A DNA stretch of 32,000 bases from Candidatus Iainarchaeum sp. (GCA_030688545.1 JAUYHT010000002.1:30001-62000); one strand, 5' to 3'. Shown: positions 12,925-31,435, counted from the stretch's first letter. The notes: generated by a model from the letters alone, not told the origin. Program-made: numbers and translations.

Positions 12925-13236
12925 AGGTGAGTCGCCGGCCGTAAGCGGCCTTCTGTTCTGTCCCCATTCGCCTAAGCGTCGTCGCGACTTGCACTCCTCC
13001 GGCGGGAACCCGTTTCAATGCGCGTGCCGGAACGTCCTCTCTTCGATTCATCCTGCCCGGCAGGGCAGACCGTTTCTGTGCTCCCGCGGCCGCTCCCGCA
13101 GCCGGACGGAGATTGACCGAGTGGGCCGACTTTCCTCAGCAGTCGTTCGCAAGAGAGGCTGACAGTCGGTGCCCCATCCTAGGGGCGGGAGGCCGACCTC
13201 TCCTATTGACCACCGTCGGGGGACCACCGGCGACTC
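12925..13236 (-). ncRNA. rnpB: RNase P RNA (archaeal type)
   Basis: The minus strand reads GAGTCGCCGG...CTGAGGAAAGTCGGCC (CR-I GAGGAAAGTC at 13128-13137)...GCACAGAAACGGTCTGCC...GGACAGAACAGAAGGCCGCTTACGGCCGGCGACTC. The 5' GAGTCGCCGG (13236-13227) and 3' CCGGCGACTC (12938-12929) form a perfect 10-bp P1 helix. Length is about 310 nt and the region is GC-rich. ORFs 12857-13051 and 12914-13162 are artefacts. Confidence 0.85.
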
Positions 13237-14872: not shown

Positions 14873-15541
14873 TCAGGATTTTTCGAGCAATTTCATCGTT
14901 TCGGGATTCTTTTTGATGAACTCGTCAACAAATTTAATCAGTTCATCATGGTCGACCGGGATGGCCTTGAAGCGTGATTTTTTGAATAGCATAGGCGTCG
15001 AATCCTCCATTACACTTGGTTTTTTCCATTTTATGAATGTTTGCACACTTTGCACGATTTCCAAGGGAGAGAGGTATGATATTTTTGGATTTGCGCCGGC
15101 CAATTCAAATAACAGCGTGATTAATCGAAAATCTGGGGATTCTGAGTTTTTCCCAAAAATCTCGTTGATTGCATCGAAAGGTTTTGATCCTTGATTAATT
15201 TTCTGATTTATTTGAATCAACTTTGATTTGATATTTTCTTCGTCATAAGTAGGGTCAAATTGGTTATTATGCAAGAAAAAATTGAATGAAATGAATGCAG
15301 TCCGTTTGTTCCCATCATTAAAACAATGTCCTTTAACAAGATGAAAAAGGAGATAGGAAGCGCAGTAAACTACTTTTTCCTGGGGGCTTCTCGGTTCAAT
15401 ACCTGCTAATTCAGGGAAATCCTTAATCTGGTCGATAATAAAGTTAAGATTCTCGGAAGACATGAAGCCATTGGATTGGACATGAATCCGGTCGTGTATA
15501 TCAAGGATATCTTCCCTTGTCAAATAACGAAAAGAAGCCAT
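14873..15541 (-). CDS. Fic/Doc family protein (Doc-like toxin core plus a C-terminal extension of about 110 aa)
   Basis: Fic motif HCFNDGNKRTAF (HxFxDGNKR) and a Doc-like N-terminus YLTREDILDIHDRI. The gene is A/T-rich. TATA tttatatt (15564-15571, minus) lies 22 nt before the ATG, suggesting a leaderless transcript. No upstream Phd-like ORF is present. Confidence 0.85.
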   Translation of the reverse strand: MASFRYLTREDILDIHDRIHVQSNGFMSSENLNFIIDQIKDFPELAGIEPRSPQEKVVYCASYLLFHLVKGHCFNDGNKRTAFISFNFFLHNNQFDPTYDEENIKSKLIQINQKINQGSKPFDAINEIFGKNSESPDFRLITLLFELAGANPKISYLSPLEIVQSVQTFIKWKKPSVMEDSTPMLFKKSRFKAIPVDHDELIKFVDEFIKKNPETMKLLEKS

Positions 15542-15777: not shown

Positions 15778-15789
15778 GTGTAAGAATTC

Positions 15790-18740
<2,951 letters not shown>

Positions 18741-18774
18741 GAATCTCTTACACTCACTTAAAATTTTGGGAACA

Positions 18775-21942: not shown

Positions 21943-22497
21943 TTAAGGGTTGGGAATCATGGGTTCACAAGATCCCCAGAATGTTATCGCGCAGAGTGTT
22001 TTTACCTTGGGAACATCTGGAGGGTCATCGTAAAAAGAAGGTGTTGGAAAACAAGATGGTCTTTGATTGTTACCTAATTCTACAAAAATGGGACAATCGG
22101 TTTGAGTGGAACAAAACTGGCTTGAGATATTGCGGACATCAGCGATTGCGGCATCACAATGAGCCTGGGAATCAGAGGGACAAGAAACGCCATAATGAAT
22201 ATCTTCGTTCACATGTGGCCAATTTATATTGGTTCCACAGGAATACGGAACCCTCCTACCTGTCTGGGGATCGGTACAAACTATTTGAAATTCTCCTTGC
22301 TCATTAAACTCCCCGTTACAAATGGGTTCACCAGGGGGATGAATATCGCTTTCTGTAGAACCCGTGGTTCGGACTCCCTGAATGGCAAGACCGGTATTAG
22401 GATTGTTGCCAATGAGGTAAATGGATATCACCAAAATAGCTACTAATGCTATTACCAATGAAAACTGGTCCATCGAAAGGGTTTGGAATTTAGGCAT
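21943..22497 (-). CDS. Hypothetical extracytoplasmic Cys-rich protein (10 Cys) with an N-terminal hydrophobic anchor or signal
   Basis: MPKFQTLSMDQFSLVIALVAILVISIYLIG, then a domain with 10 Cys. The N-terminus vaguely resembles a class III (pilin-type) signal, QxxSxDxF followed by a hydrophobic stretch, but it lacks Gly/Ala at position -1. Confidence 0.6.
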   Translation of the reverse strand: MPKFQTLSMDQFSLVIALVAILVISIYLIGNNPNTGLAIQGVRTTGSTESDIHPPGEPICNGEFNEQGEFQIVCTDPQTGRRVPYSCGTNINWPHVNEDIHYGVSCPSDSQAHCDAAIADVRNISSQFCSTQTDCPIFVELGNNQRPSCFPTPSFYDDPPDVPKVKTLCAITFWGSCEPMIPNP

Positions 22498-22552: not shown

Positions 22553-22624
22553 TGGACCCGGCGGGACTTGAACCCGCAACCTTCTCGTTGCAAACGAGAC
22601 GCGCTACCATTGCGCCACAGGCCC
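22553..22624 (-). tRNA. tRNA-Ala (anticodon UGC), no encoded CCA
   Basis: Reverse complement: GGGCCTG TG GCGC AATGGTA GCGC G TCTCG TTTGCAA CGAGA AGGTT GCGGG TTCAAGT CCCGC CGGGTCC A. The G3-U70 alanine identity pair is present. Confidence 0.92.
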
Positions 22625-22829: not shown

Positions 22830-23438
22830 CTATTTGATTCCAAGGACATTGAGCTTGGGCAAATGTTCCTTGGGGAAATGACCGAAAATGATGAGCCAGG
22901 CGATGTACATGAAGATGGCCCAGAAGAATATCATAACTTGTCCCACCGAATCATGATGCAAGATCAAGGCCTCCGGAGAGAATTGCAATCCTACCAACAC
23001 GTCAGCCACAATGCGGAGGGTATTGCCTAAGAAGAGAAAGGGGACAAAGAGGAGCGACGCCACTCGGTGGGTCAATGGAAAAACCGGCATGAGGAATATG
23101 GTGAGGGGAAAAATGAGCATGAGCACCACGCCACTGCATTCCGCGGACACCTCCAGGGGTGGAAGACCCTCCACCACCAAATAATTTCCCCATGGAGCCG
23201 AAAACACCCCAATAAGGTTGAGGATAATGGCGGCCAACCAACTCGTGAGCTCGGGGAAAGGATAATAATAGGGAAATTCGAGCACCGCATAGGCTAAGAT
23301 GCCCCCCACCACAAGAAGGACAATGCCCCATTTGAGGATGTTTTTCCCCTGCTCCCTAAACGAAGATGTGGATGTGGCCGGCGTAGAGGTGTTTGGCTTG
23401 AGCGCCGCCGTTTGGGGGGTTGAATGATGTTGCATCAT
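22830..23438 (-). CDS. Archaeosortase/exosortase-family transpeptidase, short form (about 200 aa)
   Basis: Polytopic membrane protein with the family hallmarks in order: LEVSAECSGVVLM (Cys), LGNTLRIVADV (Arg), ILHHDSVGQVM (His). The ATG at 23438 overlaps the TGA of the upstream GT2 gene (ATGA). Confidence 0.8.
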   Translation of the reverse strand: MMQHHSTPQTAALKPNTSTPATSTSSFREQGKNILKWGIVLLVVGGILAYAVLEFPYYYPFPELTSWLAAIILNLIGVFSAPWGNYLVVEGLPPLEVSAECSGVVLMLIFPLTIFLMPVFPLTHRVASLLFVPFLFLGNTLRIVADVLVGLQFSPEALILHHDSVGQVMIFFWAIFMYIAWLIIFGHFPKEHLPKLNVLGIK

Positions 23439-24625
23439 CGGGTCCCCCAATGGGTATTCTTCATGGTGAGGAGGGCATAGATACGGGTGGGGATGAGAAG
23501 GAACACGTGGACTAATGCATACACGGGGAAGATAGTCAATCCCCAATCCCGGGTGCGGTAAATCCCATACATCCCCCGGATGAGGGCAATCCCAACGAGC
23601 ACGGCCAGATATCCTAACAAATAATACGGGCTAATCAGGGTAGAACGATAAATTGTGTAGCCTAAGGACAAAACGAGGAGCAAGGGCAGGATGAGCTGGA
23701 TGATCATGTCATAGATGATATAGGGATGGAGTTTCCTGGGGTGTCGAATCACCATCTTAATGGTCCACAATAGCTCGCGATAAAAACTCTTATTCCATCG
23801 CGTCTGCTGTTTGAGAAAACCTTGGATGGTTTGAGGGACATGGGTGAAAGCTACGGCGCGACGCTCGTAATGAACTTTGTAGCCTTTGTTCAGAATTAAA
23901 TTTGTCAGATGGCGGTCATCCCCATATGTGCATTTTTCTCCCAAGAAGACCTGGGAGATGTATTTCTCTTTCACATCATGGATGATGGAACTCCGATACG
24001 CCGCCAGGGGACCGGAGCAGCAGAGCACGGTGCCGAAAAGGCTTTGGGCGGCCCGCTCCTGATTGAACGCCGTCCAATACCTCCCATCAATAATCCGTGA
24101 AAGGATCTTCTTGGTCTTCACAACTTTCACATGACCGGTGGTGGCCCCCACTTGAGGGTCCTGAAAACGTTGAACCAGGTTGGCCACCGCATCCGGGAGT
24201 AATTGGGTGTCCGAATCAATGGTAACCAGTATTTCGGCATCGGAAGTCAAATGAATGATGTCAAACGCCTGCTTCTGGGCATGACGCTTTCCATTATTCT
24301 GGGGATTATGGACGAATCGAACGCGGGGGCTCCAGAGAAATTTTTTCCTAACTGCTAGAAAACCGGTTGGATCCTTGGAACCATCGTTCACCACGACAAT
24401 ATGGATGGAACCATTGTATTTCTGCTCCATGCATGATTGGACACAATTGGAAAGGGATTGGGGGTCCTCGTTATAGGTAGGGATGACGATGGATACGCTG
24501 GGAGTGAAGGAGGGATTGAAAGTGGATTTCAACGATCTCAGGTATTCAGCATGGGATAAATTAATCTGAACGAAGAGGTGGGTGAGGGCGAGAAGGCCGT
24601 AGATTGAAATGAGTTCTGCGATCAT
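23435..24625 (-). CDS. Processive family-2 glycosyltransferase, class I hyaluronan synthase / NodC / chitin synthase-like
   Basis: IVIPTYNED, VVVNDGS, NNGKRHAQKQAF, TIDSDT, ATGH, ERAAQSLFGTVLCCSGPLAAYR, YGDDRHLTN, LKQQTRWNKSFYRE and the C-terminal MKNTHWGTR. N- and C-terminal TM helices are present. From memory, this matches streptococcal HasA almost motif for motif. Confidence 0.88.
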   Translation of the reverse strand: MIAELISIYGLLALTHLFVQINLSHAEYLRSLKSTFNPSFTPSVSIVIPTYNEDPQSLSNCVQSCMEQKYNGSIHIVVVNDGSKDPTGFLAVRKKFLWSPRVRFVHNPQNNGKRHAQKQAFDIIHLTSDAEILVTIDSDTQLLPDAVANLVQRFQDPQVGATTGHVKVVKTKKILSRIIDGRYWTAFNQERAAQSLFGTVLCCSGPLAAYRSSIIHDVKEKYISQVFLGEKCTYGDDRHLTNLILNKGYKVHYERRAVAFTHVPQTIQGFLKQQTRWNKSFYRELLWTIKMVIRHPRKLHPYIIYDMIIQLILPLLLVLSLGYTIYRSTLISPYYLLGYLAVLVGIALIRGMYGIYRTRDWGLTIFPVYALVHVFLLIPTRIYALLTMKNTHWGTR

Positions 24626-24697
24626 CTCGTCCCCAACCTCACGTGTCGTTCATCCTATTTCCTGGAGGAGGTATTCCCGATGTGGTTTGATTCACCG

Positions 24698-25411
24698 CTA
24701 CAGTCCTTTTACGCGGCGTGTGTATAGGAAGAATCCACTTCCCAGCATGAGGGTAGCCAGCATTCCAGCCACGAGGGGGTGGATAGGCACTTTCAGGTCG
24801 CCCGACTCTGCCACGGGGGCATTGTCAGCGAAGGCACGAAACCATATTTCACCCGTCTGCATGATGGGACCTGGTTCCTGGTCGTCGCGGGTCACCGTGT
24901 AGGTGACTTGCGCGCTTTCCCCGGGAAGGATGATGCCAAACATATGGCTTCCATTCGTGTTCCCCTGGTTATTGGTGGGGGGACTCACTATCCAGGAATC
25001 GGGGGTATTGCGCAAATCCCCTCGCGTATTGAGGGAGGGAACATTGCCCACATTGGTTACGGTTACTTCCACCTGGAAAGTGTCTCCCGCATTGGCCGCG
25101 CTCCCGATGATCGACGCTTGGACCAGCAATAATGTCTGCTGGGCCGGCTGGGACTGCTGAACATCTCCCGTGATAGGGATGGGTTCGATGTCTGAAACTA
25201 TATCATTAGGCGCCGCATCCGAAATGGGATCAGCTATCTCATTTTCCTGGTCGGCTGCCTCTTCGGTTTCCTCAGCCAGTTCAAATGCATCCGTGTCGGA
25301 TATCTCATTGTCTTCCGGTCCAATAGAATCGGTAAACGCGTCCTGAGTCATTCCCCACACGACCGGGGCGCTCAATATGGCAATTAACGCCAAGACTACA
25401 GTGAATCGCAT
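24698..25411 (-). CDS. Secreted surface protein A with a C-terminal VPIHPLVA-TM-RR sorting signal (putative archaeosortase cargo)
   Basis: An aggagg site precedes the start. Signal peptide MRFTVVLALIAILSAPVVWG, an Asp/Glu-rich linker, then a CARDB-like beta-sandwich pattern (GDTFQVEVTVTNVGNV...GESAQVTYTVTRD). The tail is KVPIHPLVAGMLATLMLGSGFFLYTRRVKGL. Confidence 0.75.
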   Translation of the reverse strand: MRFTVVLALIAILSAPVVWGMTQDAFTDSIGPEDNEISDTDAFELAEETEEAADQENEIADPISDAAPNDIVSDIEPIPITGDVQQSQPAQQTLLLVQASIIGSAANAGDTFQVEVTVTNVGNVPSLNTRGDLRNTPDSWIVSPPTNNQGNTNGSHMFGIILPGESAQVTYTVTRDDQEPGPIMQTGEIWFRAFADNAPVAESGDLKVPIHPLVAGMLATLMLGSGFFLYTRRVKGL

Positions 25412-25560
25412 CGTTATCATCCTCCTGATGGTTAAAGTTTGCGTTAAACGGTATTCTTCGTCGCGTGCTTAAATACATGCTTTACGAAACCTTTATGCCA
25501 AGGTAGGGTTAACTTTTGTCCCTGAAAATGAATAGAAAACTTTATCTCTTGAGAAAAATA

Positions 25561-26103
25561 TTAGCTGGGACAATGTGATTGGCCTGTTTTTTCCAAATAC
25601 ATTTGATGATATTCCTCGGCCCGATAGAAGACTGAAGCCGGTTCGATGGTCGTCGTGATGGGAAGGGGGTATTTTTTTGAAGCGATTTCCTGTTTTATTG
25701 ACTTTTCAGCCGTCGCCAGTTGCGCTTGGGAATGATAGAAAATGACACTCCGGTATTGGCTCCCCCTGTCAGGACCTTGCCGGTTTCCCTGGGTGGGATC
25801 ATGGATGTCCCAGAATACGCGCAAGAGGGCATCATATGAGACTTTTTTAGGGTCGAATGACAAGTGGCACACCTCCACATGCCCGGTTTTTCCCGAGCAT
25901 ACTTGGGCATACGTCGGGTGAGCCTTTGTTCCCCCCATAAAACCAACCGTCGTATCCACTACGCCATTCACCCGGCGGAAGGATTGTTCCACCCCCCAAA
26001 AACAGCCGGCCCCGAAGGTGGCTAATTCGAACTTACCTGGGATGGGTAGTGGAGTCACGCCTACTCCAAATACGTTCCACTCTATAAAAATAGGTGCCGG
26101 CAC
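25561..26103 (-). CDS. msrA: Peptide methionine-S-sulfoxide reductase
   Basis: GAGCFWGVE active site, [19 protein letters not shown] and YHQMYL. GTG start as listed; the true start is uncertain. Confidence 0.92.
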
Positions 26104-26269
26104 CTGGCACGAACGACTGGGGAGATAATAATAGGGTTCATCCTTCCCTGTGCCGACACAATGTTATTTCATTTCGATATTACTCAATTCATACCACTCA
26201 TTCTTCTGATTTTTTCAGCACTGGCTCAAGCGAAACGTACACCCATCATTATTGAAGGGTCTTGTTTCC

Positions 26270-26965
26270 TCAGCTTACCTGTTTCCGGCGCAAATACACC
26301 CCGTACCCGCCCAGCATCGAACCCACGAGGGCGAATGCCACGAGCGGATGGATAGGGACCCTCAACGCATTAGAAGTGGCCTTATTGGTATTATCTCCTT
26401 TCGCTTCGAAAACGAGGGTTGAATCTTCGGCGTCGCGGGTGATAGTATAAATGAATTCACGACTATCTCCTGACGGCAAATCGCCGAAATCCGCCATCTT
26501 ATCGGCCGGTGTCACTTGCCACCCTTCTGGTACGAACATGAGTTCGCCCATCACATTTTCAGCGGTCACCATCCCCACGTTGGAAATGATAGCTTTCACC
26601 TTGAAGGTGTCGCCCTCTTCCTGGTAGGGGCCATCAATGAACAGATGGGCAATCAACAACGTCCTTCCATTGTCTTTCATCGTATTGATGAGAATTAAGT
26701 TTTTTACCAGTACTTGCTGGGTCGATTTAAGGACTACTCTTTCCTGCAGTCCGTCATCACTATTGATGAAGACCTGTTTAGCATTGCCTACTGACGTTTC
26801 ATGATCCACCTGGACTGTCACGGATTGAGTTTCCCCTTCCACGGAAGCATGGTTCTGGTTGTCCACGCTCGCTTCCGAAGAAGAATCCATGGACGTCCCA
26901 TCGGCCCACGCGGGGGACCCCAGTAGGAACAATGACGCCACGGCCAGGACTAAAAGATTCTTCAT
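26270..26965 (-). CDS. Secreted surface protein B with a C-terminal VPIHPLVA-TM-RR sorting signal (paralog of 24698-25411)
   Basis: taggaggtga lies 4 nt before the ATG at 26965. Signal peptide MKNLLVLAVASLFLLGSPAWA, then a CARDB-like segment (GDTFKVKAIISNVGMV...GDSREFIYTITRD). The tail is RVPIHPLVAFALVGSMLGGYGVYLRRKQVS. Confidence 0.75.
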   Translation of the reverse strand: MKNLLVLAVASLFLLGSPAWADGTSMDSSSEASVDNQNHASVEGETQSVTVQVDHETSVGNAKQVFINSDDGLQERVVLKSTQQVLVKNLILINTMKDNGRTLLIAHLFIDGPYQEEGDTFKVKAIISNVGMVTAENVMGELMFVPEGWQVTPADKMADFGDLPSGDSREFIYTITRDAEDSTLVFEAKGDNTNKATSNALRVPIHPLVAFALVGSMLGGYGVYLRRKQVS

Positions 26966-28404: not shown

Positions 28405-29115
28405 TCAGATGATGGACGCAGCCATATACAACCCTAATGCAATGAGGAATAGACCAATGCCCAACCGCATGAGTCCGCGGTTCTCTTTCCGCCAGGCCTC
28501 CATCTTCTTGGAGGTGGTGCCAAAATACATCAGGCCGATGATGACGAACAAGGGAAGGACGAAGACGAGGTTATACAAAAGGAGTAAGGGAATTCCCTCC
28601 GCTAAATTGCCTGCCGATAACAATCCCAACACCGCCAGATAGGGCGCTCCCGTGCAGGGCAATTCGATGAAAACCACGAATATCCCTAACACGAATGCGA
28701 AGGCAATCGCGAGGAAGGGGTGTTTCATCTCCAAGTTTTTGAAAATGGAGGTATAGTGTTTGACCCGTTCCGCCCCCCCGGGAAGGATTTGGAGGGAAAA
28801 CCCTTTTCCGTACCAAAAGTAATCCTTGATCTCCAACAACCCGGCTAAAATAGCGATGATGGCCGCTAACCAATAGAAACTGATGGATAGGCCGGTGTTC
28901 AGGGCCAGGTGAAGGATGCCTAATCCCAAAACGAGGTAGGTGAGGTAGACGGCCACCACATAAATCAGGCCGGCGATGAGCATCCGACGCTTGTCTTTCT
29001 TGAAAACGGCCTTCATGTAAGCCAGGAGGAAGATGAGCACCCCGAAGACGCAGGGATTAATGCTGTCCGCAAGCGCCGCCCCAATGACTAATGGGAGGGT
29101 GAGTTCTGTGACCAT
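28405..29115 (-). CDS. CcdA/DsbD-family thiol:disulfide electron-transfer membrane protein
   Basis: Six to eight TM helices with the two hallmark membrane-embedded Cys motifs, SINPCVFGVL and ELPCTGAPYL. Confidence 0.8.
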   Translation of the reverse strand: MVTELTLPLVIGAALADSINPCVFGVLIFLLAYMKAVFKKDKRRMLIAGLIYVVAVYLTYLVLGLGILHLALNTGLSISFYWLAAIIAILAGLLEIKDYFWYGKGFSLQILPGGAERVKHYTSIFKNLEMKHPFLAIAFAFVLGIFVVFIELPCTGAPYLAVLGLLSAGNLAEGIPLLLLYNLVFVLPLFVIIGLMYFGTTSKKMEAWRKENRGLMRLGIGLFLIALGLYMAASII

Positions 29116-29132
29116 TTGTCCCTAACTCCCTG

Positions 29133-29525
29133 TCACGCGCCCGTCCCCGGATAGGGACACCCGGTCAATTCTTCCAACTCCTGATAGGTGGCCAACCCTT
29201 CAATGCGCCCTAATTCCTGTCCATCCACTTCCCTCACCCACGTGGGGGTTTTGGCGATATTCTTTTCCAGGCATAATTCCACTTGGGGATTTTCCCCATT
29301 GGGATGGCATTCTATTTCGATGATTTTTTCGAACGCGGGACCAAACTCCTCCCGCTGCTTCTTGCAGGAGAGGCAGGTGAACGACCCATACATGAGAGTG
29401 TCGCTGTCGGTAATACATTGGGCGAAGGCCGTGAACGCCGGGGTTTGCGGATGCGCCGTGCTTCCCCCGACACAGCCTGCTAATACGATGAGGGCAATCA
29501 TTCCGATGGCTAACATAGTTTTCAT
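29133..29525 (-). CDS. Extracytoplasmic thioredoxin-fold CxxC lipoprotein (DsbA-like partner of VKOR)
   Basis: Lipobox LAGC after MKTMLAIGMIALIV, and a CLSC redox motif. It resembles the Trx-like domains fused to bacterial VKORs. The ATG at 29525 overlaps the VKOR TGA (ATGA). Confidence 0.7.
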   Translation of the reverse strand: MKTMLAIGMIALIVLAGCVGGSTAHPQTPAFTAFAQCITDSDTLMYGSFTCLSCKKQREEFGPAFEKIIEIECHPNGENPQVELCLEKNIAKTPTWVREVDGQELGRIEGLATYQELEELTGCPYPGTGA

Positions 29526-30055
29526 GCGCGTTTTCCTCCCGTTCTTCGCCAATGGACAAAGGCCCAAAGGACGATTAAAAGTAATACCGTATGTGAGAAT
29601 ATACACCAGGTGCAGATGGCGTCCAAAACATAGAGCATGAGATAGACGAAATACATCGCTCCCAGGAACATCAGACCGCCCGCGATGGCAATAATCTTTA
29701 ACGCGGTTTCCTGGGCTAATCGCTTATGCCATCCCCCCCAGGCGATGAGGAAAAAGAAGGCGAATCCTAATATTCCGAATACCGAAACAGGAATGCCAAA
29801 CATCTCGGAGTACACACTGTTATTCACAAAATCACAATTACCCCCAATAGGGCAGGCCGTGGAGGTGTCCGAGAGTTTGTTATAGAGGAGGATGGAATCA
29901 ATGCCAATTCCAATGAGCGCCAGAACCAGGATGACCATCCATTTGGTATTATGGGCTTTCTGGGAAGCGTTTTTGGAAGAAGGAGATGACAGGCCGGGTG
30001 AGGAAACCTTGGGTTTCCTCTTATTACGAGCGGGAGGCATGCCTGCAACACCCAT
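29522..30055 (-). CDS. Vitamin K epoxide reductase (VKOR) family protein
   Basis: Loop Cys pair ACPIGGNC, and the TM CxxC motif ICTWCIF after the conserved SxxGxP-like segment (SEMFGIPVSVFG). Four to five TM helices. Confidence 0.85.
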   Translation of the reverse strand: MGVAGMPPARNKRKPKVSSPGLSSPSSKNASQKAHNTKWMVILVLALIGIGIDSILLYNKLSDTSTACPIGGNCDFVNNSVYSEMFGIPVSVFGILGFAFFFLIAWGGWHKRLAQETALKIIAIAGGLMFLGAMYFVYLMLYVLDAICTWCIFSHTVLLLIVLWAFVHWRRTGGKRA

Positions 30056-30112: not shown

Positions 30113-31435
30113 ATGCGGAAAACCATTGTGGAGAGGATGCCGGGGGCCCACCTCACCAAAATCATCTCCTGCCTGGACGAAAACCAAAAGGGCTTGCTCA
30201 AAGAAAGCCCCCACTCGGTGATTGTTGCCGATATGGAAGGGCATGTGGTGGCCTGCAATGCGGGGGCCGGGGACTTATTTGGGTATACGAAAACAGAGAT
30301 GATTGGCACCCATGTCAAAGTTTTCCATCCCCCCCAAAATTATGCCCGGATCCTCCCTGAATTGTTTCGCACGGCCCTGCAGAAAGGAATTTATGATCAG
30401 ATTATTACCCTCCAGAAGAAAGACCACCAACCCTTTCTCGCCCGCATCATCGTTACGCGCATCCTCGGAACGGATGGAAAGCCCATTGCCCTCATGGGGG
30501 TTACCTCGCCCGCCCAAAAAGCCCCCTCTATTGGTTTTATCGCCACTTGGATTAGGGCCCTCCGCGCGCCTTTCTTCACGGCAACCCTCATCCCTATTTT
30601 TTTAGGAACCGCCATTGCCTTCTCCGCTACGGGAACATTTTCATTCTGGCCATTCTTCTGGACGGTATGGGGCATGCTCTTCATCCACGCGGGAGTAAAC
30701 TTAGCCAATGATTATTTCGACCATCAAACAGGGAATGATGAATTGAATCCGCACCCCACGCCCTTCAGTGGGGGCAGCCGGGTGATTCAGGAAGGATTGG
30801 TGGCTCCGAATACGATAAGGAATGTCGCCCTCCTCTGCCTCGCCGTTGGATCCCTCATCGGATTATATCTCAATTCCCTTGTCCCGGGGAACCTCATCCT
30901 GGTTTTAGGGGTTTTGGGAGTGGGTATCGGATTCTTCTATAGCAGCCCACCCCTCGCGGCGAGCTACAAACGATTGGGGGAATTATGTGTCGCTTTAGGA
31001 TTCGGGCCCCTCATTGTATTAGGCAGCTATGTCGTCCAAACACAATCCTTTTCCATTATCCCCTTGGTGGCCTCCATCCCCATCGCTTTGCTCATCGTTG
31101 GGGTCCTATTCCTCAACCAGTTCCCCGATTTTGAGGCTGATGTGAAATCACAGAAGCGAAACCTGTTGAACACTTGGGGCAAACCCACGGGGGTCAAACT
31201 CCTCACCTATGGAGTGGCGGCTGTTTTCATATTCACGGGAGCAGGGGTCATATCTGGATTATTTCCCCCGCTCGCGGGACTTACATTACTGGCGCTCCCC
31301 TTCGCCTACGCCATGCTCACCACGCTCCGCACCCACTATGATCAGGTGCTCGAATTGCTCCCCGCCAACGCCAATATGATCAAATTGCATTTTACCTATG
31401 GATTGCTTTTTACTATTGCTTTCCTGGTGGGATGA
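30113..31435 (+). CDS. menA: PAS domain fused to a 1,4-dihydroxy-2-naphthoate polyprenyltransferase-like UbiA-family enzyme
   Basis: Residues about 25-135 form a PAS fold (SPHSVIVADMEGHVVACNAGAGDLFGYTKTEMIG...KDHQPFLARIIVTRILGTDGKPIALMGV). The remainder is a polytopic UbiA enzyme with MenA-type motifs NLANDYFDHQTGND and NQFPDFEADVKSQKRN. Confidence 0.82.
   Translation: MRKTIVERMPGAHLTKIISCLDENQKGLLKESPHSVIVADMEGHVVACNAGAGDLFGYTKTEMIGTHVKVFHPPQNYARILPELFRTALQKGIYDQIITLQKKDHQPFLARIIVTRILGTDGKPIALMGVTSPAQKAPSIGFIATWIRALRAPFFTATLIPIFLGTAIAFSATGTFSFWPFFWTVWGMLFIHAGVNLANDYFDHQTGNDELNPHPTPFSGGSRVIQEGLVAPNTIRNVALLCLAVGSLIGLYLNSLVPGNLILVLGVLGVGIGFFYSSPPLAASYKRLGELCVALGFGPLIVLGSYVVQTQSFSIIPLVASIPIALLIVGVLFLNQFPDFEADVKSQKRNLLNTWGKPTGVKLLTYGVAAVFIFTGAGVISGLFPPLAGLTLLALPFAYAMLTTLRTHYDQVLELLPANANMIKLHFTYGLLFTIAFLVG

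Follow-up and report, generated by a model that had tools for sequence, protein, structure and literature searches.

We describe a three-gene module from a 32-kb stretch of DNA of Candidatus Iainarchaeum sp. (GCA_030688545.1, JAUYHT010000002.1:30001-62000; the whole stretch of 32,000 nucleotides is called the window, and positions are counted from its first letter). In this module a small sortase-like protein of the exosortase/archaeosortase superfamily is encoded together with a family 2 glycosyltransferase (GT2) and a putatively exported protein, the cargo, with a predicted C-terminal sorting signal. The three genes probably represent an archaeosortase system dedicated to one or two targets, which, as judged from sequence comparison, is obligately paired with a polysaccharide synthase predicted to produce a polymer containing N-acetylglucosamine (GlcNAc). 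What is new here, at the level of predicted protein families, is an archaeosortase subfamily for which no specific curated model exists; it has a sorting signal and a cargo family of its own and, in DPANN archaea, is obligately coupled to a synthase of the hyaluronan synthase (HAS)/NodC type. The module lies on the minus strand at 22830-26965, where five co-oriented open reading frames (ORFs) were recovered exactly where, and in the order in which, a first-pass annotation of the window had placed them:

22830-23438, minus strand: sortase-like protein, 202 amino acids (aa) (ORF call)
22953-22955, 23013-23015 and 23136-23138, minus strand: candidate catalytic residues His162, Arg142 and Cys101 of the sortase-like protein, respectively
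23435-23438, minus strand: ATGA in which the GT2 stop and the sortase start overlap (read from the sequence)
23435-24625, minus strand: GT2, 396 aa (ORF call)
24698-25411 (alternative start 25420), minus strand: cargo A, 237 aa (ORF call)
24698-24790, minus strand: predicted sorting signal of cargo A, VPIHP, then LVAGMLATLMLGSGFFLYT, then RRVKGL (read from the tail)
25561-26103, minus strand: msrA, product peptide methionine-S-sulfoxide reductase (ORF call; TIGR00401, 203 bits)
26270-26965, minus strand: cargo B, 231 aa (ORF call)
26270-26359, minus strand: predicted sorting signal of cargo B, VPIHP, then LVAFALVGSMLGGYGVYL, then RRKQVS (read from the tail)

The five genes had been called tightly packed, which is true of cargo A, GT2 and sortase (a gap of 72 nt between the first two, an overlap of 4 nt between the last two) but not of msrA, on either side of which gaps of approximately 140 to 210 nt were found. 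The overlap of the sortase ATG with the GT2 stop, also reported at first pass, can be read directly at the junction (...CGATGATG..., with the ATGA), and through it the two genes are predicted to be translationally coupled. The window itself can be assigned to an archaeon, as had been supposed, because it contains a 23S rRNA and an RNase P RNA, both of archaeal type, and because its 202-aa protein is identical to one recorded from a Candidatus Diapherotrites archaeon. Candidatus Diapherotrites corresponds to Candidatus Iainarchaeota, kingdom Nanobdellati (DPANN).

The initial assignment of the 202-aa protein to the exosortase/archaeosortase family was checked with profile hidden Markov models and proved sound: the generic signature of the superfamily, TIGR04178, matches it with 37.5 bits against a curated cut-off of 23, and an NCBI protein 100% identical to it carries the annotation 'exosortase/archaeosortase family protein'. 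By the same profiles it belongs to the superfamily but falls outside every named Art/Xrt subfamily cut-off. The scores (with cut-offs in brackets) were 29.1 bits for ArtE (TIGR04124; 95), 23.4 for XrtG (TIGR03110; 102.75), 22.7 for XrtX (170) and 14.1 for XrtH (86). The models for ArtA, ArtB (TIGR04144, cut-off 150 bits), ArtC, ArtD, ArtF, ArtH, pacearchaeosortase and heimdallarchaeosortase gave no match at E≤0.1, and a Pfam scan did not match PF09721, yet this family is recorded for most of the close homologues. The protein had been described as only about 200 aa long. The length is correct, but it is not unusually small: the models of ArtE, ArtB, XrtH, XrtX and XrtG span only 153-187 positions, so that approximately 200 aa is an ordinary size for this branch of the family.

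The putative catalytic triad of exosortases and archaeosortases consists of nearly invariant Cys, Arg and His residues (Haft preprint, 10.1101/2023.06.07.544157). The contexts in which the first-pass annotation had located them, ECSG (residues 100-103), NTLRI (139-143) and HHDSVG (161-166), are indeed conserved. Close homologues of the 202-aa protein form only ten 90%-identity clusters (52-63% identical to it), in the alignment of which E100, C101, N139, R142, D146 and H162 are invariant. An exhaustive profile search with the sortase yielded 259 representatives at E≤1e-3, approximately 40 of them at E≤1e-10 and nearly all of these 160-235 aa long. In a 40-sequence alignment of the relatives R142 and H162 are invariant and C101 is conserved in at least 90%; all 40 match TIGR04178, other named archaeosortase models giving only partial, sub-threshold matches (ArtE, 27 to 42 bits in the clade). 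Aligned by hhalign with proteins named archaeosortase B by JGI (98% probability), the clade places its Cys, Arg and His opposite theirs (SAECSG/IGECTG, GNxxRI/xTLIRL and HDSxGQ/HTYLWQ, sortase clade first). The spacing from Cys to Arg is 41 residues, and the same spacing separates Cys173 and Arg214 of Haloferax ArtA, both critical by mutagenesis (PMC9263693). The sortases described here appear as an uncurated archaeosortase subfamily. An AlphaFold2 (AF2) model of the protein (mean predicted local distance difference test score, pLDDT, 75.6) comprises helices at residues 26-53, 62-75, 102-116, 122-152, 155-163 and 165-185 and a hairpin at 80-89, which would correspond to about four membrane passes plus an outer-face helix/hairpin. 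From the AF2 helices, the hydropathy and the placement of the K/R-rich termini inside, we infer that C101, R142 and H162 are situated at outer-face helix ends. No solved structure resembling the sortase was retrieved by sequence profile or by fold (best Foldseek E 1.2).

The partner encoded immediately upstream had been described as a HasA-like processive GT2, and the closest solved structures bear this out: they are class I hyaluronan synthases from a Chlorella virus and Xenopus (E ~1e-57, residues 110-396). TIGR04242 (NodC) matches the protein over its full length with 317.2 bits, below the equivalog cut-off of 550; further matches are PgaC/IcaA (136 bits) and the XrtG-associated GT2 model TIGR03111 (72.4 bits against a cut-off of 363.95), while Pfam Glycos_transf_2 and Chitin_synth_2 (60.9 against a cut-off of 27) are above their cut-offs. 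The motifs NDGS80, DSD137, GDDR235 and QQTRW273 are present, WGTR (393-396) forms the exact end of the protein, and hydrophobic segments are found once near the N-terminus and three times near the C-terminus. On the full-length NodC match, the HAS relatives, the motifs, the membrane segments and the WGTR end taken together, the GT2 is predicted to be a processive, membrane-channel-forming synthase of the NodC/class I HAS/chitin synthase type, and its product a beta-linked GlcNAc-containing polymer, either chitin-like or hyaluronan-like.

Both cargo proteins begin with a hydrophobic N-terminal signal sequence. In cargo A the signal peptide is followed by an acidic disordered linker, a beta-sandwich (residues 95-202) and the C-terminal sorting signal, and its structure model shows the sandwich with confidence, the linker as disordered and a C-terminal helix at 212-235. 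The CARDB-like sandwich of the first-pass annotation is in agreement with this model, the fold matches of which are generic Ig-like sandwiches with the CARDB domain of PF1109 among them (E 2.6e-4); Pfam matches of the cargo to NPCBM_assoc and DUF11 are sub-threshold. The acidic linker had been ascribed to both proteins. It is strongly acidic in cargo A (21 D/E and no K/R over 70 residues) but only mildly so in cargo B (11 D/E and six K/R over 86 residues). The two cargoes are 37% identical over 142 aa comprising the beta-sandwich and tail, and the near-identical tripartite C-terminus attributed to them is readily seen: the octamer VPIHPLVA is the same in both and is followed by approximately 18 hydrophobic residues and then by RR or RRK. 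Within the window such tails, VPIHPLVA followed by a helix and basic residues, occur in cargo A and cargo B only. The cargo family forms eight clusters, against ten for the sortase, with VPIHP invariant in its alignment. An NCBI protein identical to cargo A (P0011) is annotated as hypothetical, and the ATG of cargo B is preceded by a ribosome-binding site, AGGAGGTG. Curated CTERM models (PGF, PEF, PIP, VPXXXP, Firmicu-CTERM and others) compared with three cargo tails at E≤10 gave only irrelevant sub-threshold matches (srtB_target, NPXTG).

Evidence for the module as a unit comes from its recurrence. Cargo, GT2 and sortase occur together in the window and at related loci (designated by number: L001, L002, L003, L007, L008, L010, L011, L012 and L014), with identities to the window proteins falling to 33% for the sortase, 49% for the GT2 and 25% for the cargo. 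The arrangements are as follows:

L001, L002, L003: cargo of 164-166 aa ending EVPIHPIVGG...RKK, located 15 nt upstream of a 394-aa GT2, the stop of which overlaps a 185-aa sortase
L006: cargo and GT2 as in L001-L003; the contig ends inside the GT2, ahead of the sortase position
L004: only the GT2-sortase junction can be read, as the contig starts within the GT2 and the cargo position is off the contig
L007, L008: GT2-sortase pair with, upstream, a cargo ending KVPVEP or KVPVSP; sortases with long N-termini
L010, L011, L012, L014 (33-38% sortase identity): chitin-synthase-type GT2 of 380-397 aa with an ATGA overlap with the sortase start, adjoined by a cargo with a beta-sandwich and a C-terminus showing RVPIFP, RIPVFL, NIPISM or PMPINP and then a helix

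The neighbourhood of GT2, sortase and cargo, in the order cargo, GT2, sortase, was found at every related locus with readable flanks. Homologues of cargo A stand directly upstream of the GT2 in L001, L002, L003 and L006, and the cargo gene of L011 is oriented divergently to the GT2. The WGTR end is common to all GT2s of the related loci, and the junction in which WGTR and the stop codon run into the ATGA of the sortase is repeated in L001, L002, L010, L011, L012, L014 and the L004/L007/L008 subclade. Most relatives have one cargo, the window genome having two with a single GT2-sortase pair. A more distant relative from Micrarchaeota (P0056) has no GT2 neighbour and therefore bounds the GT2-coupled clade. 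A search for further loci in GTDB species genomes led back to the L002 contig alone, and a pattern scan of JGI metagenomes gave none.

Such adjacency could in principle be inherited synteny of three functionally unlinked genes, given that several of the loci come from related Iainarchaeota and that msrA and a DnaQ-like exonuclease gene (see below) are also partly syntenic. We regard this explanation as hardly credible, because the flanking genes are wholly different among the window, L010, L011, L012 and L014, and yet the trio and its 4-nt overlap persist.

The signal peptide and the tripartite C-terminus are present in cargo A, cargo B and the cargoes of all related loci, and in each of them the motif adjoins the helix (VPIHP, VPVEP, VPVSP, VPIFP, MPINP, IPVFL and IPISM across the window and related loci). 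We propose that [VIM]-P-[IV]-x-P, with a membrane helix and then a basic tail after it, is a new C-terminal sorting signal, to judge by this recurring pattern. It was also considered whether cargo B could be an orthologue of the L007/L008-type cargo with its signal converted to the motif of the resident sortase. Since cargo B is approximately equally distant (37-38%) from both cargo types, this idea is only suggestive and was set aside.

In the mechanism that we favour, the cargo would be exported by Sec and held in the membrane by its C-terminal helix. The sortase, with its active site at the outer face of the membrane, would cleave at or beside the VPIHP/[VIM]P[IV]xP motif abutting the helix and swap this helix for another anchor, most likely a membrane lipid, by analogy with ArtA/PGF-CTERM. 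The coupled synthase would extrude the beta-linked GlcNAc-containing polymer (chitin-like or hyaluronan-like), and anchored beta-sandwich protein and polymer together would form a surface coat or adhesion matrix on the wall-less DPANN cell. In the window genome two cargoes would be served by one sortase. Enzyme and target genes are adjacent at the window locus, as in the 'dedicated systems' of Haft.

Several points weigh against this interpretation. At the most distant loci the second Pro of the motif is lost (IPVFL, IPISM), and of the basic tail only one or two K/R are left (KSVK in L011, one R in L012). No genes for uridine diphosphate (UDP)-sugars (UDP-glucuronic acid, UDP-GlcNAc) are present in the 32-kb window. 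Furthermore, plain lipid anchoring alone leaves the strict coupling of GT2 and sortase unexplained.

The degenerate motif and short tails of L011 and L012, together with the lack of any curated CTERM model matching the cargo tail, would suit another explanation, in which the cargo is a permanently helix-anchored accessory subunit of the synthase and the sortase-like protein acts on some other target or as a non-proteolytic scaffold. Single-pass partners of processive GT2 synthases exist. Nevertheless, we find this improbable: Cys, Arg and His are kept throughout the clade, which argues for catalysis; a Pro-containing motif abuts the helix in every cargo and is identical in paralogues that share only 37% of their residues; and a tail of the cargo type is found on no other ORF of the window.

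The unexplained coupling is better accounted for by a third possibility, namely that the sortase is a transpeptidase which, in complex with the GT2, joins the C-terminus of the cleaved cargo covalently to the nascent polymer or its primer, so that protein and polysaccharide would be conjugated where the polymer leaves the synthase channel. Synthase and sortase would in this case be physically associated, and their 1:1 translational coupling would be a sign of it. In agreement with this, the ATGA coupling is kept down to 33% sortase identity, a GT2 accompanies all members of the clade that could be checked, and the GT2-less relative P0056 lies outside it; in addition, the polymer exit and the active-site residues of the sortase would both be on the outer face, according to the model. 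In the XrtG system, which is bacterial and independent, a sortase is likewise combined with glycosyltransferases and a single CTERM protein (PMC12854382), and one-step transpeptidation by exosortases and archaeosortases is an open question (Haft preprint, 10.1101/2023.06.07.544157). On the other hand, a fully N-acetylated chitin or hyaluronan chain has no amine nucleophile and the cassette contains no deacetylase; ten longer profile matches scanned (302 to 575 aa) had exosortase domains and one fusion with a helix-turn-helix (HTH) domain, but no sortase-GT2 fusion; and the sole characterised archaeosortase substrate is lipid-modified (10.1101/2023.06.07.544157). We therefore look upon a conjugate as unlikely, albeit the most serious competitor of cleavage with lipid anchoring, which we continue to prefer.

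For the latter, ArtA/PGF-CTERM of Haloferax volcanii offers the best-supported mechanistic analogy, that is, cleavage and lipid anchoring. The two systems have in common an enzyme that is polytopic (by prediction in the window protein) and Cys/Arg-dependent in ArtA, with the 41-residue Cys-Arg spacing, and a signal made up of motif, helix and basic residues. ArtA, however, has approximately 300 aa, many targets including the S-layer glycoprotein and no GT2 partner, and, as stated above, its model does not match the window protein. ArtE (TIGR04124) and ArtB (TIGR04144) are similarly small, with models spanning 153 to 156 positions; the top subfamily match is ArtE, and a Val-Pro-initiated motif is shared; the differences are that ArtE scores under its cut-off, that ArtB is not matched, and that the window motif is VPxxP whereas ArtB targets carry VPXXXP. 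We know of no GT2 coupling in ArtE/ArtB systems.

In the first-pass annotation the cassette was not recognised as one already described. Its logic is known, however, as the exosortase G system of Firmicutes, the closest analogue in this respect, has the same one, consisting of a Firmicu-CTERM protein, XrtG and two XrtG-associated glycosyltransferases (PMC12854382). Each is a compact cassette in which one or more GT2s accompany a single tagged protein and a small protein of the exosortase family, and neither host has an outer membrane; both sortase and GT2 of the window are weak, partial matches to the XrtG models (23.4 and 72.4 bits). These scores are far under the cut-offs given above, however; the window GT2 is of the NodC/HAS type and its host is an archaeon; the order here is cargo, GT2 and sortase with the ATGA; the cargo belongs to another fold family and carries another sorting motif; and a match to Firmicu-CTERM was not obtained at E≤10. 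The XrtG cassette is thus a resemblance of logic, not of membership.

Exosortases have been linked to exopolysaccharide (EPS) loci since 2006 (Haft 2006), and the PEP-CTERM/exosortase A (EpsH) system likewise ties an exosortase-family enzyme to polysaccharide biosynthesis genes. There, large multi-gene EPS loci of the Wzx/Wzy type are found in outer-membrane bacteria with many scattered targets, in contrast to the single GT2 and one or two adjacent targets of the present module. Dedicated sorting systems of one enzyme and one target with adjacent genes are an established category, e.g. MrtJ/JDVT-CTERM (10.1101/2023.06.07.544157), which is comparable in its one-to-one relation of enzyme and target and in gene adjacency. 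Its enzyme is Rce1-like, unlike the exosortase-like enzyme of the window, and has no polysaccharide synthase partner. With class I HAS and NodC, the window GT2 shares the full-length architecture and the DxD, GDDR, QxxRW and WGTR motifs; it differs from them in scoring below the NodC cut-off (317 against 550), in ending exactly at WGTR, in being archaeal and in its coupling to a sortase. Among the papers listed by a full-text literature search, none joins an archaeosortase with a chitin or hyaluronan synthase or with Diapherotrites.

The msrA gene had been counted as a member of the cassette, but is better described as a neighbour. An in-frame GTG at 26058 has a TATA-like box (TTTTTATA) 25-32 nt ahead of it, at 26090-26083, and after the msrA stop codon there is a T5 run. 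In L001-L003 unrelated genes separate the sortase from msrA, which is found 1.3 to 3.9 kb downstream, and in L011, L012 and L014 none was found within 5 kb of the module. Its own box and T-run, and its shifting position or absence in relatives, rule out msrA as a core component; by these signals it is probably a transcription unit of its own, standing between cargo A and cargo B. Genes for redox repair are repeatedly found near the module, namely msrA in the window, msrB in L010 and a gene for a glutaredoxin+DsbD_TM protein in L011. A co-oriented thiol-redox cluster also lies just upstream of the module in the window, at 28405-30055:

29522-30055, minus strand: VKOR-family protein (84 bits)
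29133-29606, minus strand: thioredoxin-like protein with a lipobox-like LAGC (weak Thioredoxin_2 match)
28405-29115, minus strand: CcdA/DsbD-like membrane protein (weak matches)

It might be speculated that the recurring redox genes keep the outer-face catalytic Cys reduced.

Two further observations concern the related loci. L008 has, upstream of its trio, another sortase gene of this family with a truncated 5' end (30-326), which suggests two tandem modules in that organism. In addition, L001 (4332-4907), L002 (1203-1781), L006 (7317-7892) and the distant L014 (179-730) share a gene of approximately 190 aa on the upstream side of the cargo gene; none was found in the window. In L001, L002 and L006 it matches Pfam DNA_pol_B_exo2/RNase_H_2 (DnaQ-like exonuclease). 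The L014 gene has no Pfam match on record and resembles the others by its N-terminal sequence only (FYxDxET).

In the window the module is surrounded by housekeeping genes (aspartate carbamoyltransferase, ATCase; H+-translocating pyrophosphatase, H+-PPase; alanyl-tRNA synthetase, AlaRS; and methyltransferases). A tRNA-Ala(UGC) gene (22553-22624) lies directly downstream of the sortase gene and is separated from the 23S rRNA region (15779-18750) by approximately 3.8 kb with four ORFs (a methyltransferase, an isochorismatase and two without known identity). Neither 16S nor 5S rRNA was found in the 32-kb window, the rRNA genes being unlinked. The RNase P RNA (12929-13175, minus strand) scores 84.9, barely above the Rfam gathering score of 84, as would fit a DPANN RNase P RNA that is reduced or divergent. 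Among the remaining ORFs, one at 30113-31435 (plus strand) is unusual in that PAS sensor domains (residues 29-131) are fused to a UbiA-family prenyltransferase (residues 159-407). Two minus-strand ORFs stand amid housekeeping genes, one with a 'putative phage metallopeptidase' domain (1482-1871; 69 bits) and one of the Fic/DOC family (14873-15541). A further ORF of 184 aa (21943-22497) is rich in Cys, has a hydrophobic segment at its N-terminus and matches no family.

The sortase, GT2 and cargo families have no specific curated model in NCBIfam 20.0 or Pfam, and their members are annotated generically or as hypothetical. In the module described here, the association of exosortases with exopolysaccharide is reduced to three genes, encoding a tagged protein, a synthase-type GT2 and a sortase of approximately 170 to 200 aa, and the conservation of their coupling over deep divergence makes the system tractable for reconstitution. 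ArtA, the sole experimentally studied member of the family, is a lipid-anchoring enzyme without a glycan partner, and the module may provide a small test-bed for the question of which acceptor exosortase-family enzymes use: polymer, lipid or water. Should the protein-polysaccharide conjugate after all be true, three genes would suffice for a minimal prokaryotic 'proteoglycan' or tethered capsule, and the polymer would be the first defined acceptor for an exosortase-family enzyme linked to polysaccharide synthesis. The cell surfaces of DPANN archaea mediate host attachment and are almost uncharacterised; the present data document in these archaea a hyaluronan/chitin-synthase-like enzyme together with a predicted new sorting signal.

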